Shown piece after piece: positions 3,258 through 51,420 of a DNA stretch of 64,000 nt (position 1 is its first letter; each line of letters begins with the position of its first letter). The position numbers and the translations under genes were made by a program. The stretch lies in NCBI GenBank assembly GCA_030699935.1, contig JAUYKS010000022.1, positions 18,970 to 82,969 on the forward strand. Direction: 5' to 3'. The stretch comes from a bacterium. GTDB taxonomy: Bacteria; Patescibacteriota; SICC01. The notes beneath the pieces were generated by a model, which ran no database searches, had not been told where the DNA came from, and worked only from the letters and a program-made list of their open reading frames with translations.

Positions 3258-3346
3258 ACGTTGCCTAGGTATACGCTACCGGACGCTGGTTTGTCCAGTA
3301 GGGCGCCAGGCTACCAACATACCAGCAAGCTAGTATACTATTCAAG

Positions 3347-4048
3347 CTATACGACAGACCTGCGAATGCTAGACGAGACGGGTTCGCTATATTGCTCTGC
3401 GAATCGAGCGGCTAGTTTTGCACGAGCTTCGTCACCTGCCGCGGCAAAATCCAGTTCCTCTGGATACAGCACGGTCACGGAAACGACGGATACATCCCCA
3501 AGCGATAGCTCTAAGCGATCGGGTACTGTTTTTGATTTGACTCCAACCAGCGCACCAGATTGGCCCTCGGCGTACTTATAACCAACCGGGGTCCGCACTC
3601 CCCGCTGATCCATGGAGATAAGTGTGAGTTCGTCAAGAAGTTGCCGGAAATCACCGCGATGAGCAGCCTGTTCAGCAACGATACTGAGAGAATCAAATAC
3701 CCAGCTTCGAAAAGGGTTCTCGAAGTCTTCGTCCGTTTCAATATAAAACTCAAGACCAAATCCACTTCCTTCTGTCTTCAATGGGTGTGTGGTCGAAAAA
3801 GGATCGCTCAACCCATCCGTTGCTATGACAGTATTGCCATTAGGTAGCTTTATTTTTCGATATGCTTGTCTCAGATTTGGCCATTCGGGACCTCCTGCGA
3901 GAGTCGGGTTGAGGGCCGGAGCAAAATAATCCGGATCGACATCCCCGACGCCCTGCCAAAATTCAGTACGCAAACGGAAAGATTCCTGGAGTATTTTCTC
4001 CTCGTCGGACGGGACGGGGTCATTTCGATCATTCGGACTATCAATCAT
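3347..4048 (-). CDS. Hypothetical protein in a lower-GC segment, transcribed divergently from lexA
   Basis: 233-aa ORF. The roughly 50% GC island (3260-4250) contrasts with the roughly 65% GC of flanking genes. No family is recognisable with confidence (possibly a SUFU/immunity-like fold). It shares its promoter region with the lexA palindrome. Confidence 0.5.
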   Translation of the reverse strand: MIDSPNDRNDPVPSDEEKILQESFRLRTEFWQGVGDVDPDYFAPALNPTLAGGPEWPNLRQAYRKIKLPNGNTVIATDGLSDPFSTTHPLKTEGSGFGLEFYIETDEDFENPFRSWVFDSLSIVAEQAAHRGDFRQLLDELTLISMDQRGVRTPVGYKYAEGQSGALVGVKSKTVPDRLELSLGDVSVVSVTVLYPEELDFAAAGDEARAKLAARFAEQYSEPVSSSIRRSVV

Positions 4049-4102
4049 AGTGAGACATCATATTCAATAAAATTGCCTTAGTCAAGGACTTTTTTGTTCT
4101 GT

Positions 4103-4130
4103 TGACAACGTGTATACATATGTATACTAT
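4103..4130 (+). promoter_or_regulatory. lexA promoter with a candidate LexA operator: -35 TTGACA at 4103-4108, a perfect 16-bp palindrome GTATACATATGTATAC at 4112-4127, and a -10-like TACTAT at 4125-4130.
   Basis: The palindrome was verified by reverse complement and overlaps the spacer and -10, the classic geometry for LexA autoregulation. Its ACATATGT core is identical to the centre of the Gram-positive Cheo box CGAACATATGTTCG. Confidence 0.55.
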
Positions 4131-4251
4131 CTAACTGCGCTCCCTCCTCCGAGCACCTTGGCAGTCAAAAAAGACACAAACGGCTCCCCTGCCGGCCAGG
4201 GTGCTCGGCGCGCTCCCTCCTCATCATTAGAACTACAACTACATACTCATC

Positions 4252-4884
4252 ATGAGCAACGAAGCACTTTCCCCGCGGCAGAAACAGACGTTCGACATCA
4301 TCCAGAAGCACATCAAGGACCAGGGCCTGCCGCCGACGATCCGCGAGATCATGGCGGCGCTGAAGGTGAACTACCCGCGCGGCGTGCAGCGTCACCTTGA
4401 GGCACTTGAGAAGAAAGGCTACATCACCCGCGACTCCCGCAGTCGCGGCATCACGATCGCGGATAAGTTCCGCCAGGTAGCCGCGGACGTTTCCGACGCC
4501 ATCGCGCGCATTCCGATCCTCGGCCGGATCCCGGCTGGCGGGCCGATGCTGGCCGAAGAGAACATCGAGGAGTGGGTGACTCTCCCGACCGACCTTACCA
4601 AGGGCAAGCGGGACGTATTCATCCTGCGAGCCCAGGGCGACTCGATGATCGGCGCCGGCATCTTCGACGGCGACCTGCTGATCTGCCAGCCGACGGACCA
4701 CGCCGAGAACGGCGACATCGTGGCCGCGTTGATCGGCGACGACGCTACGGTAAAGCGGCTGGTCAAACGGCGCGACGCGACCTACCTGCAGCCGGAGAAC
4801 CCCAAGTACGAGAACATCTACCCGGACCAGGATTGGAAAGTGCAAGGCAAGGTAATGGCGGTCGTCCGCCAACAGGTCCGCTGA
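4252..4884 (+). CDS. lexA: LexA repressor (S24 peptidase)
   Basis: 210 aa. The N-terminus is a winged HTH (PTIREIMAALKV...HLEALEKKGYI). The C-terminus is the S24 domain with the autocleavage region and catalytic Ser-Lys (AQGDSMIGAGI...TVKRL). Confidence 0.95.
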   Translation: MSNEALSPRQKQTFDIIQKHIKDQGLPPTIREIMAALKVNYPRGVQRHLEALEKKGYITRDSRSRGITIADKFRQVAADVSDAIARIPILGRIPAGGPMLAEENIEEWVTLPTDLTKGKRDVFILRAQGDSMIGAGIFDGDLLICQPTDHAENGDIVAALIGDDATVKRLVKRRDATYLQPENPKYENIYPDQDWKVQGKVMAVVRQQVR

Positions 4885-4885
4885 G

Positions 4886-5083
4886 ATGATGCGATCGCAC
4901 ACTCCCCTGCCCGTCCCGATCGACGAACGTGCCGCCCTCGTCGCCAGGCGAAGCCGAAGCCTCGGCGTAGGCGAGCAACGTCCGGCGTATCGCGGCCCGG
5001 CGCGCGAACTCGACACCACCTTGTGGGCGGGCGTGCTGTTCTGGCTGGGCTTCGCGATGCTTGCGGTCGTCGCCGGCTTCTAG
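4886..5083 (+). CDS. Small 65-aa protein with a C-terminal transmembrane helix, translationally coupled to lexA
   Basis: Its ATGATG start lies 1 nt after the lexA TGA stop. GC3 is about 80%, consistent with coding. The C-terminus LWAGVLFWLGFAMLAVVAGF is a predicted TM helix. It ends exactly where the convergent dprA ends. Confidence 0.4.
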   Translation: MMRSHTPLPVPIDERAALVARRSRSLGVGEQRPAYRGPARELDTTLWAGVLFWLGFAMLAVVAGF

Positions 5084-46845: not shown

Positions 46846-47041
46846 CTATATATCACCCCCTTCCTGTTGAAATTGTCAGATAAATAAAGCAACTAGGGCA
46901 GCCCAACATCACCACGTTAACCGGCCGTTGCGTCATTCCAATGATCCTGCGTCCGCGCGATTCGATCCGAGTGACATTACTTTTTCGAACTGAATCTTAC
47001 CCCACTCGATGGTTAGTAGCTTGATGAGTGAATCATACGTC

Positions 47042-47091
47042 ACATTTGTTTATGTTGTAAACAAATGTATAGCCATACGGTTAGCGTATGG
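47042..47091 (+). promoter_or_regulatory. Two inverted-repeat operator candidates upstream of, and overlapping, the XRE regulator start. The first is ACATTTGTTTA-N5-TAAACAAATGT (47042-47068). The second is CCATACG-N5-CGTATGG (47073-47091).
   Basis: Both inverted repeats were verified by reverse complement. The second includes the ATG of the XRE gene. Both lie in an AT-rich 240-bp divergent intergenic region. Confidence 0.55.
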
Positions 47092-47312
47092 CTATCGATG
47101 AAGAGCGGTTCTTCAATGAATTAAGTCGGCGCATAGCGAAAGCTCGCAAGAGCCAATCGCTTTCCCAGGAGGCCCTTGAAGCCAAGTCTAACGTAGACAG
47201 GGTCGCGATAGCCTACATCGAGCAAGGGCACCGCAAGCCGACCGTCACGACCGTCTATCGGCTGTCAAAGGGGTTAGGCATCAAGCTCGAGAACCTTTTC
47301 AAAGGCTACTGA
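47088..47312 (+). CDS. XRE-family HTH transcriptional regulator
   Basis: 74 aa. The Cro/C1-type HTH reads LSQEALEAKSNVDRVAIAYIEQGHRKPTVTTVYRLSKGLGIKLENLF. Confidence 0.8.
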   Translation: MAIDEERFFNELSRRIAKARKSQSLSQEALEAKSNVDRVAIAYIEQGHRKPTVTTVYRLSKGLGIKLENLFKGY

Positions 47313-47707
47313 AGATTATGTTGCAGGGGCGTCACCACGACCTCGCGTTCGCGCGGTCCGCTGAACTCGAACAGGACGACCCGCTGCCACGTCCCGAGCT
47401 GGAGTTTGCCCCGGGCGACCGGCACCGTCACCGACGGCCCGACCAGCGAAGCGAGGATGTGGTCCGGCATATGCGACGGATCGTGCGGGTGGCGGAAATC
47501 GAGCCGCGGCACCATCTGTGTCAGCGCGTCGAGGTAATCAAGGTCGGTGCCGCCCGGGTCGAGATCGGCGGTACTGAGCCCGACCGTCGTGTGCTTCACG
47601 AACGCGTGCACCGTGCCGGCATGACCTTTGGGAATTTCTGCAGCCAACCGATCGGTAATGTCGATCACTTGCTTCGATTCCTGACTGGAAATCTTGAATA
47701 AACTCAT
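47306..47707 (-). CDS. YjbQ/UPF0047 family protein (secondary thiamin-phosphate synthase-like)
   Basis: The N-terminus MSLFKISSQESKQVIDITD and the motifs HTTVGL and DFRHPHD are typical of the family. The start is chosen at the internal ATG; the listed ORF extends to 47797. Confidence 0.8.
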   Translation of the reverse strand: MSLFKISSQESKQVIDITDRLAAEIPKGHAGTVHAFVKHTTVGLSTADLDPGGTDLDYLDALTQMVPRLDFRHPHDPSHMPDHILASLVGPSVTVPVARGKLQLGTWQRVVLFEFSGPREREVVVTPLQHNLQ

Positions 47708-50186: not shown

Positions 50187-50260
50187 CAGGGGCGGAGGGA
50201 TTCGAACCCCCGACACCGGGTTTTGGAGACCCGTGCTCTGCCAGACTGAGCTACGCCCCT
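50187..50260 (-). tRNA. tRNA-Trp (anticodon CCA)
   Basis: Manual fold of AGGGGCG-TA-GCTC-AGTCTGGCA-GAGC-A-CGGGT-CTCCAAA-ACCCG-GTGTC-GGGGG-TTCGAAT-CCCTC-CGCCCCT-G. CCA is not encoded. Confidence 0.9.
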
Positions 50261-50374
50261 AGGAGTGAGGGAAATGCAAAGTTTACTTTAGCATTTCCGA
50301 GCGACGACGGAGCGTATGCAATACGCCCCTGGGTACTCAAATAATACAGGCTGCGCGGCCGGACTGCCGAGCAG

Positions 50375-50536
50375 CTACTTCGTCTCTTTGTGCAGCATGT
50401 GCTTCTTGCAGCGCTTGCAGAACTTCTTGATCTCCAAGCGCTCCTGCGTGTTCCGCCGGTTCTTGGTGGTGTGATAGTTGTGCTCCTTGCACTCCGTGCA
50501 TTCGAGCGTGATCACCGGTCTGATGTCCTTAGCCAT
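50375..50536 (-). CDS. rpmG: 50S ribosomal protein L33
   Basis: Not in the ORF track because it is shorter than 60 aa. The reverse translation reads [53 protein letters not shown], a 53-aa protein with a Cys4 zinc ribbon. Confidence 0.9.
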
Positions 50537-50596
50537 ACCGAATTACGATATCATGAATCCGCGTCATCCCGCGCCCTTAGGACGCCGGACGGCCAA

Positions 50597-50670
50597 GCCG
50601 CCTTAGCTCAGCTGGCCAGAGCAACTGTTTTGTAAACAGTAGGTCCTCGGTTCGAATCCGAGAGGCGGCT
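50597..50670 (+). tRNA. tRNA-Thr (anticodon TGT)
   Basis: Manual fold of GCCGCCT-TA-GCTC-AGCTGGCCA-GAGC-A-ACTGT-TTTGTAA-ACAGT-AGGTC-CTCGG-TTCGAAT-CCGAG-AGGCGGC-T. Confidence 0.9.
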
Positions 50671-50673
50671 CAT

Positions 50674-51201
50674 TCAGCCGTAGAATTGCTCCGGATCAAT
50701 ACCGGCTTCTCTCATCTTTTCGGCAGCTTCTTCAAGCAGGGGATTCAGTCGATCCCATACGTGGTACTCAACTGCCATCAACCCAAGCGGATGTCCCGTA
50801 GCTTCGTCCAGGAGATCGGCGGCTGCGCCGCTTCGATCTACCTTGAGTAAACGAACGTACTCACGGTTCAGTGGCCCTACTTGATCCTTCTCAGCCAGAG
50901 CCTCTTTAATCTGTCCAACGAACTCTTCATTATCATCCAAGAACTTCACCCACACATCGCCAAGATCTTCAGCCTTCCCTAAGTAAACTTCGTAGAATTC
51001 GTTCCTTTCGCCGCCCACTTCTAGATGCCGCAGTTGCGAAAACAACAAATAGAAGTTGTTTCCGAACTGGATGGTACGCTCCCGGGTTTCCACTCGCGGA
51101 TCATCCATTGGAACTTTAGGAGCGTTCGCCGCTAACTCCCGCATTTCCGCGGAGGGTTCCAGCGGCTCGGCTCCGTCATGACCAGATTCAGGCGCATGCA
51201 T
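50674..51201 (-). CDS. Hypothetical protein in a lower-GC segment within the tRNA cluster
   Basis: 175 aa. No recognisable family. GC is lower than the flanking tRNAs and genes. Confidence 0.5.
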   Translation of the reverse strand: MHAPESGHDGAEPLEPSAEMRELAANAPKVPMDDPRVETRERTIQFGNNFYLLFSQLRHLEVGGERNEFYEVYLGKAEDLGDVWVKFLDDNEEFVGQIKEALAEKDQVGPLNREYVRLLKVDRSGAAADLLDEATGHPLGLMAVEYHVWDRLNPLLEEAAEKMREAGIDPEQFYG

Positions 51202-51243
51202 AGCTAGTAACTTTACCGTAATAAAGCCATTTTTTCAAGATTG

Positions 51244-51326
51244 TGCTGGGAGAGGGATTCGAACCCCCGAAGACATAAGTCGCCTGGTTTACAGCCAGGT
51301 GCGTTTGGCCGCTTCGCTATCCCAGC
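51244..51326 (-). tRNA. tRNA-Tyr (anticodon GTA), long variable arm
   Basis: Manual fold of GCTGGGA-TA-GCGAAGCGGCCAAACGC-A-CCTGG-CTGTAAA-CCAGG-CGACTTATGTCTTC-GGGGG-TTCGAAT-CCCTC-TCCCAGC-A. Confidence 0.9.
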
Positions 51327-51346
51327 GTGTTGTTAATACTACCCTG

Positions 51347-51420
51347 AGCCGAGAGGCGGATTCGAACCGCCGGCCTCCCGCTTACCATGCGGACGCTCTA
51401 ACCAACTGAGCTACCTCGGC
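51347..51420 (-). tRNA. tRNA-Thr (anticodon GGT)
   Basis: Manual fold of GCCGAGG-TA-GCTC-AGTTGGTTA-GAGC-G-TCCGC-ATGGTAA-GCGGG-AGGCC-GGCGG-TTCGAAT-CCGCC-TCTCGGC-T. Confidence 0.9.

Follow-up and report, generated by a model that had tools for sequence, protein, structure and literature searches.

LexA is unusual among regulators for the many changes that its binding motif has undergone across bacteria. The Cheo box, recognized by the Gram-positive LexA/DinR repressors of Bacillus subtilis and the Actinobacteria, consists of two half-sites around four variable bases, with an inner AC...GT, and is located in lexA and recA promoters. The cyanobacterial LexA box, RGTAC-N3-DGTWCB, derives from the Gram-positive type. 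The repressors of the BlaI/MecI/CopY family bind the box TACAnnTGTA. The SOS regulon of Patescibacteria was reportedly described in 2017 by Sanchez-Osuna, Barbe and Erill in Environ Microbiol (doi 10.1111/1462-2920.13826). A 2020 paper (PMC7739468) lists that study among the cases of direct-repeat recognition by LexA.

The element described here is a palindrome in the lexA promoters of a high-GC Patescibacteria/Saccharibacteria-like clade. It shares with the Cheo box the two half-sites with four variable bases between them, the inner AC...GT, the location in lexA and recA promoters, and a LexA of the same two-domain build. It differs in the half-site, which is TATAC instead of CGAAC (three of five positions differ), and in that GTATAC is itself palindromic. 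Strictly defined, a Cheo box has GAAC/GTTC half-sites, whereas the 20 clade sites have ATAC/GTAT (with one base changed in locus L003); by these half-sites the clade box is not a Cheo box, although it appears to work like one. With the cyanobacterial box it shares a TAC...GTA core and differs in spacing, outer bases and phylum. The 2017 study of Patescibacteria concerned the same superphylum and the same regulator, with the same comparative-genomics logic. In the literature on LexA in Patescibacteria, Saccharibacteria and the Candidate Phyla Radiation, no description of a GTATAC motif was found, the motif of the 2017 study lying outside this comparison; if that motif consists of GTATAC repeats, the clade box would be a further member rather than a new motif.

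The window, that is, the whole 64,000-nt stretch of DNA that was analysed, carries lexA behind a promoter that contains a perfect 16-bp palindrome, GTATACATATGTATAC. The stretch with promoter and palindrome, read directly from the window, is tgTTGACAacgtGTATACATATGTATACTATctaactgcgctccc. The elements are as follows.

4102..4107, + strand: lexA promoter -35 hexamer TTGACA (promoter scan; invariant in all relatives)
4112..4127, no strand assigned: candidate LexA operator (SOS box) GTATAC-ATAT-GTATAC (direct reading, conservation)
4125..4130, + strand: lexA promoter -10 hexamer TACTAT (promoter scan), sharing the last 3 bases of the box

An earlier note on this DNA had proposed the palindrome at 4112–4127 as a lineage-specific LexA operator between these two hexamers. 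Direct reading bears out its sequence and coordinates, and the promoter consensus scan finds the flanking hexamers 17 nt apart, agreeing with a sigma-70-type promoter at 10 of 12 positions. The palindrome thus lies between -35 and -10, where an SOS box of lexA is expected, and overlaps the -10 by 3 bp.

Such a perfect palindrome is expected 0.01 times per window (100 shuffles of the window). If up to two of the 12 outer bases may mismatch at a spacing of 4, only two sites in the window qualify, 4112–4127 and 47057–47072. The second (GTAAACAAATGTATAG) was rejected as a further box and is better explained by a different palindrome, ACATTTGTTTA-N5-TAAACAAATGT, before a gene for an XRE-type regulator. 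Single GTATAC hexamers occur 10 times against 7.8 expected and, because this count is near chance, isolated copies carry no meaning. This applies to the two on the topA side, which the earlier note had placed at 3266 and 3328 and which actually stand at 3269 and 3333. A relaxed search of the window found no box at its DNA-metabolism genes mfd, dprA, topA, rmuC, the UvrD-nuclease gene and holB. Among the 44 Pfam-annotated proteins of the window there is no RecA, UvrA or DinB, and dnaX is likewise not in the window. An Rfam search of the window returned tRNAs only.

The region around the rejected site has features of its own. The inverted repeats ACATTTGTTTA-N5-TAAACAAATGT and ATAGCCATACG-N5-CGTATGGCTAT stand just before the gene for a 74-aa XRE-type regulator (47091–47315; repeats and gene together 47035–47315), and the first of them contains the window's only partial site of the GTATAC type. 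The surrounding region, at 45–52 kb of the window, has a lower GC content and four tRNA genes (50187–51420), which may mark an island.

The gene behind the palindrome codes for a LexA of ordinary build.

4252..4884, + strand: lexA, 210 aa, winged helix-turn-helix plus S24 peptidase (Pfam and alignment to E. coli LexA structures)

Both domains are present (PF01726 LexA_DNA_bind, 3.6e-20; PF00717 Peptidase_S24, 7.1e-32), and the PDB entries closest in sequence are full-length LexA repressors. The cleavage site A95-G96 aligns with A84-G85 of E. coli LexA, and the catalytic pair is in place: S131, in the motif GDSM (the GxSM serine), aligns with S119 and K168, in TVKR, with K156. To judge from its domains and its cleavage and catalytic residues, the window LexA is a complete, intact repressor. 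The closest lexA genes in species-representative genomes of Patescibacteria and Candidatus Saccharibacteria are 92, 80, 78 and 69% identical, in DNA of 51–64% GC. In a large protein collection the window LexA belongs to a tight clade (P0001–P0047, 63–100% identical), after which identity drops to about 51%; the group beyond includes Candidatus Doudnabacteria.

We read 11 distinct lexA promoters of this clade (window, L001/L201, L002, L003, L004, L204/L211, L206, L264, L278, L279). The arrangement TTGACA-N4-GTATAC-N4-GTATAC-TAT is kept in all 11, with LexA proteins 63–100% identical, and the box is perfect in 10; the sole deviation is GTCTAC (C for A) in L003. The -35 is always 4 nt from the box, and GTATAC-TAT recurs in most recA promoters. 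The bases between and around these blocks vary, and so does the upstream gene. Spacer bases would have no cause to remain constant over such LexA distances if nothing read them. What is constant is the set of 12 outer bases, the one change in L003 excepted, while the centre may be ATAT, ATTT, GCAT, ACCT, ATTA, ATCT, AGAT, TTTT, AAAT, AAAA or TAAT. The earlier note had laid weight on the centre ACATATGT, which equals the core of the Cheo box; this emphasis is misplaced, as the GTATAC hexamers are kept and the centre is not. Because the four central bases vary, the match of the window's centre to the optimal Bacillus box is not meaningful.

Because recA and dnaX lie outside the window, the regulon is described from relatives and not from the window's own genome. 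A perfect box occupies the recA promoter slot at seven distinct loci (L328, L329, L334, L335, L243, L326 and L225). A search for RecA homologues paired P0150 and P0146 with two of the clade LexAs by the length of their longest contigs, and the loci fetched for them are L328 and L329. The recA of L328 shares a 681-kb JGI contig (Ga0373472_0000001) with the lexA locus L201, and the recA of L329 shares a 639-kb NCBI contig with the lexA locus L003. Four of the promoters read:

L328, recA promoter: TTGACAtagGTATACATTAGTATACTAT
L329, recA promoter: TTGACAgataGTATACATCTGTATACTAT
L334, recA promoter: TTGACAcgagtaGTATACATTTGTATACttt
L335, recA promoter: TTGACAcataGTATACAGATGTATACTAT

The earlier note had named the absence of the palindrome from other SOS genes and from the lexA of relatives as evidence against its reading; the 11 lexA promoters and the seven recA loci speak for it instead.

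A third target is dnaX. A second perfect box stands at the edge of L206, in the layout TTGACAgataGTATACAAAAGTATACTAT, and the gene beyond is dnaX, followed by dnaB. In L336, L337 and L338 a perfect box lies about 220–250 nt upstream of the start codon of dnaX(-dnaB). The leaders from box to dnaX are as follows.

L337, 1466–1685: box-to-dnaX leader
L338, 10619–10838: box-to-dnaX leader
L336, 10581–10830: box-to-dnaX leader

L338 is on the 681-kb JGI contig, so in that one genome lexA, recA and dnaX are all preceded by the box. In relatives, then, the element precedes lexA and, in the same genomes, also recA and dnaX. The dnaX leader is well conserved between L337 and L338, and no Rfam match was found in the leaders of L336, L337 and L338; it could be a structured leader or an unrecognized small RNA. 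The dnaX target is less secure than lexA and recA, because a -35 is recognizable at only one of the three boxes and Rfam has no counterpart for the long leader. As for the window's own genome, the protein P0317, which adjoins dnaX in L337, and the window LexA (P0001) are both listed with a longest contig of 96,777 bp. This suggests that they share a contig, and in the window's genome a dnaX box probably lies some kilobases beyond the left end of the window.

Clade DNA totalling 266 kb (loci partly overlapping) has sites with at most one mismatch only at lexA, recA and dnaX, and about 0.004 perfect sites are expected there by chance (mononucleotide model). These data bear on the reading that no repressor is involved and that the element reflects chance or the build of the promoter alone, its AT-rich spacer containing -10-like TATAC motifs. 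TATACT does resemble a -10 hexamer, and the box always lies within the core promoter. Spacers normally vary, however, yet here 12 bases stay constant, with one change, across LexAs 63% identical while the adjacent bases vary. The same 12 bases recur at recA and dnaX at 3, 4 or 6 nt from the -35, other promoters of the window are without a box, and the chance expectation is far below the number of sites seen. We consider an explanation without a repressor extremely unlikely.

The pattern TTGACA-N4-GTATAC-N4-GTATAC was also sought in metagenomes, where it has at least 120 loci; we used the identity of the hits and not their frequencies. Among the matches listed, the first downstream gene is lexA in six cases, recA in three (with the gene order RodZ-like/recA/recX), an imuA-imuB-dnaE2 cassette in one and recQ in one, and most of the matches listed are unrelated promoters. 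In unrelated genomes the same palindrome precedes non-SOS genes, namely those for small His-rich proteins, HigB-like toxins, TetR regulators and recombinases. Because such genes carry it elsewhere, the sequence of the palindrome alone does not identify LexA.

Several of these matches deserve separate mention. The imuA-imuB-dnaE2 cassette (L216, 1432–6210, on a freshwater contig of 60% GC) has the promoter TTGACAtataGTATACATATGTATAC, and the recQ of L291 has Planctomycete-like neighbours on its contig. From the genes concerned, a GTATAC-type SOS box may also serve outside the studied clade in L216, and L291 is a similar case. On low-GC contigs (33–45%), genes for a family of small His-rich proteins (..HHRGPKTFRRGRAIAFLEMMNLKRATIKQQLE.., without a Pfam match) have a pair of GTATAC-N4-GTATAC boxes in front of them, the first within the promoter spacer and the second about 30 nt downstream; loci of this family among the matches listed are L217, L221, L226, L227, L233, L235, L246–L249 and about 35 more. 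This looks like a different, uncharacterized regulator acting on the same palindrome. Outside this metagenome scan, the viral contigs L104 and L107 carry GTATACANNTGTATAC four and five times, respectively, over a few kilobases; a phage repressor may use these copies as repeated operators.

Could another repressor of lexA, recA and dnaX, a BlaI/MecI/CopY-type winged-helix protein or one of the XRE/HigA type, own the clade sites? Part of the window site, TACATATGTA, matches the cop/bla box, though the likeness is one of sequence only and the regulator family is unrelated to LexA. The palindrome also precedes many non-SOS genes in other bacteria, and the match in L270 adjoins a BlaI/BlaR1 pair. 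In the clade, however, the centres TTTT, AAAA, TAAT, ATTA and GCAT break TACAnnTGTA while the outer hexamers are kept, and no such regulator was seen beside the lexA, recA and dnaX genes. A target set of lexA plus recA is moreover the universal core of LexA, the slot is occupied by a GAAC-type box at the lexA of the sister group, and the box covaries with the recognition helix of LexA (both described below). An operator of some other repressor is accordingly very unlikely.

We regard the palindrome as very probably the SOS box (LexA operator) of the clade, in a diverged form of the Gram-positive GAAC-N4-GTTC. The conservation at lexA and recA and the box of the sister group in the same slot support what the earlier note had put at its centre, a lineage-specific LexA operator of Gram-positive descent. 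The sister LexAs P0055 and P0050 (Doudnabacteria and related; 48–49% identical) have GTGAACGAGCGTTTAC (GTGAAC-N4-GTTTAC) in the identical promoter slot, with the layout TTGACA-N4-(16-bp box) followed by TAT or cat. It is because of this box that the clade element looks like a diverged GAAC-N4-GTTC. The half-sites of the sister boxes (P0050, P0055) are GTGAAC and GTAAAC against GTATAC in the clade; their LexA helix has Asn and not Arg at the position equivalent to E. coli Asn41, and dinB adjoins lexA there. Two loci that fall in the sister group by sequence, L209 and L321, already carry GTATAC-GATC-GTATAC. L209, 77% identical to P0063, has Arg at the Asn41-equivalent position.

The recognition helix of the window LexA reads PRGVQRHLEALE, against SSTVHGHLARLE in the LexAs with a Cheo box. 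LexAs with an SSSTVH helix have CGAAC-N4-GTTCG upstream, the compared LexAs of Firmicutes and Actinobacteria have the same box, and some Armatimonadota-like LexAs have CGTAC-N4-GTTCG. At the position that is Asn41 in E. coli, both users of GTATAC (helices PRGVQRHL and SKRAAAKHL) have Arg, whereas users of GAAC have Asn or Ser. The comparison of helices for which the earlier note had called thus shows the type of box changing together with this residue. Arg43 is a candidate specificity residue, and the boxes can be arranged in a plausible path GTGAAC -> GTAAAC -> GTATAC with one base change per step. The nearest LexAs outside Patescibacteria (KSB1, Ignavibacteriales and a Bacteroidetes-labelled MAG; L005–L008, L007/L010) have GTTCAC...GTGAAC with a 10–17-nt gap in their lexA promoters, and these long-gap repeats differ from the GAAC-N4-GTTC and GTATAC types alike.

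The self-complementary hexamer leaves room for a second geometry, in which LexA reads a direct (tandem) GTATAC repeat with a 10-bp period rather than an inverted repeat. Both readings fit the sequence, and the flanks are asymmetric, with a 3' T at 19 of 20 sites against a 5' mix of T, A and G; PMC7739468, cited above, adds a precedent by counting the 2017 Patescibacteria study among the direct-repeat cases. The 3' T is, however, explained by the -10 element TACTAT, and the related GAAC-N4-GTTC boxes are inverted repeats. The E. coli LexA-DNA complexes (3jso and related) are, in addition, symmetric dimers on inverted half-sites. Tandem recognition seems to us very improbable, and it would alter the geometry of binding and not the identity of the element.

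Taking the box as an inverted LexA operator, we infer the following course of binding, repression and induction. A LexA dimer would bind the two GTATAC hexamers, which are spaced 10 bp centre to centre. As the hexamers occupy the spacer between the -35 and -10 of lexA and overlap the -10 by those three bases, bound LexA would exclude RNA polymerase, and lexA would repress itself. Upon DNA damage, RecA filaments would trigger self-cleavage of LexA at A95-G96 by means of S131 and K168. The promoter would then open for transcription of lexA and of the downstream ORF that codes for the small membrane protein. Repression would also be lifted from recA-recX, and probably from dnaX-dnaB, in the same genomes. 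The change of half-site from TGAAC to TATAC would have accompanied the arrival of Arg at the Asn41 position of the recognition helix.

The surroundings of lexA comprise three further features.

4131..4251, + strand: lexA leader, with conserved TGCGCTCCCT at 4137–4146, a hairpin at about 4159–4208 and the repeat GCGCTCCCTCCTC at 4138–4150 and 4210–4222
4886..5083, + strand: small ORF of 65 aa with a C-terminal membrane helix, starting 1 nt after the lexA stop (ORF list)
3347–4048, - strand: SUFU-like gene (Pfam SUFU, 21 bits, below cut-off; GC 0.53)

The palindrome had been called the only one upstream of lexA, but the leader also has a strong hairpin, with the stem CCGAGCACCTTGGC...GCCAGGGTGCTCGG. 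Among relatives the leader begins with a conserved TGCG(C/T)TCCCT, followed by a GC-rich hairpin and then a CU-rich block. A hairpin of about 8–17 bp is found at the same place in every relative, with quite different stem sequences, and in the window the CU-rich block is an exact repeat of GCGCTCCCTCCTC. The window lexA has no obvious Shine-Dalgarno sequence.

The peptide of the small ORF, MMR..PVPIDER...LWAGxLFWxGFAxLAVIAG, is conserved behind lexA in L001, L002, L003 and L201 and more weakly in L206, and gene calls in relatives include the ORF; in L004 and L204 its place is taken by another ORF, small, basic and common to the two. The 65-aa ORF is probably co-transcribed with lexA and hence under the same candidate operator, and could be an SOS-induced small membrane protein, for example a division inhibitor or a toxin.

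On the other side, the divergent SUFU-like gene had been thought to be SOS-regulated as well. This finds no support, and the gene was rejected as a second target of the box: its own predicted promoter (4085–4057, promoter scan) is clear of the box, and the gene is a variable insertion, present between topA and lexA only in the window and L001, replaced by a different gene in L201 and missing from five other relatives. In most relatives topA is directly divergent from lexA, and the gap between them looks like a hot spot for insertions. In relatives with topA next to lexA, only 43–60 nt separate the box from the topA start, and the box could touch the topA promoter.

Each new LexA motif adds a step to the history of motif change, and the boxes of the clade and its sister group give a nearly stepwise path. 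The GTATAC box is an inverted and a direct repeat at once, and for this reason it is possibly an intermediate between palindromic and tandem LexA motifs. We propose this tentatively, as part of a broader picture in which the SOS network of the clade would have shrunk to about three operons (lexA with the small membrane protein, recA-recX, and dnaX-dnaB behind its conserved leader of ~230 nt), with LexA directly throttling replisome genes, those for a clamp-loader subunit and for the replicative helicase, in place of translesion polymerases. The link to dnaX-dnaB, if true, would be an unusual SOS output. For the uncultured Patescibacteria with their very small genomes, GTATAC-N4-GTATAC offers a pattern with which the damage response can be searched for, and the box may be used as a completeness check on metagenome-assembled genomes.
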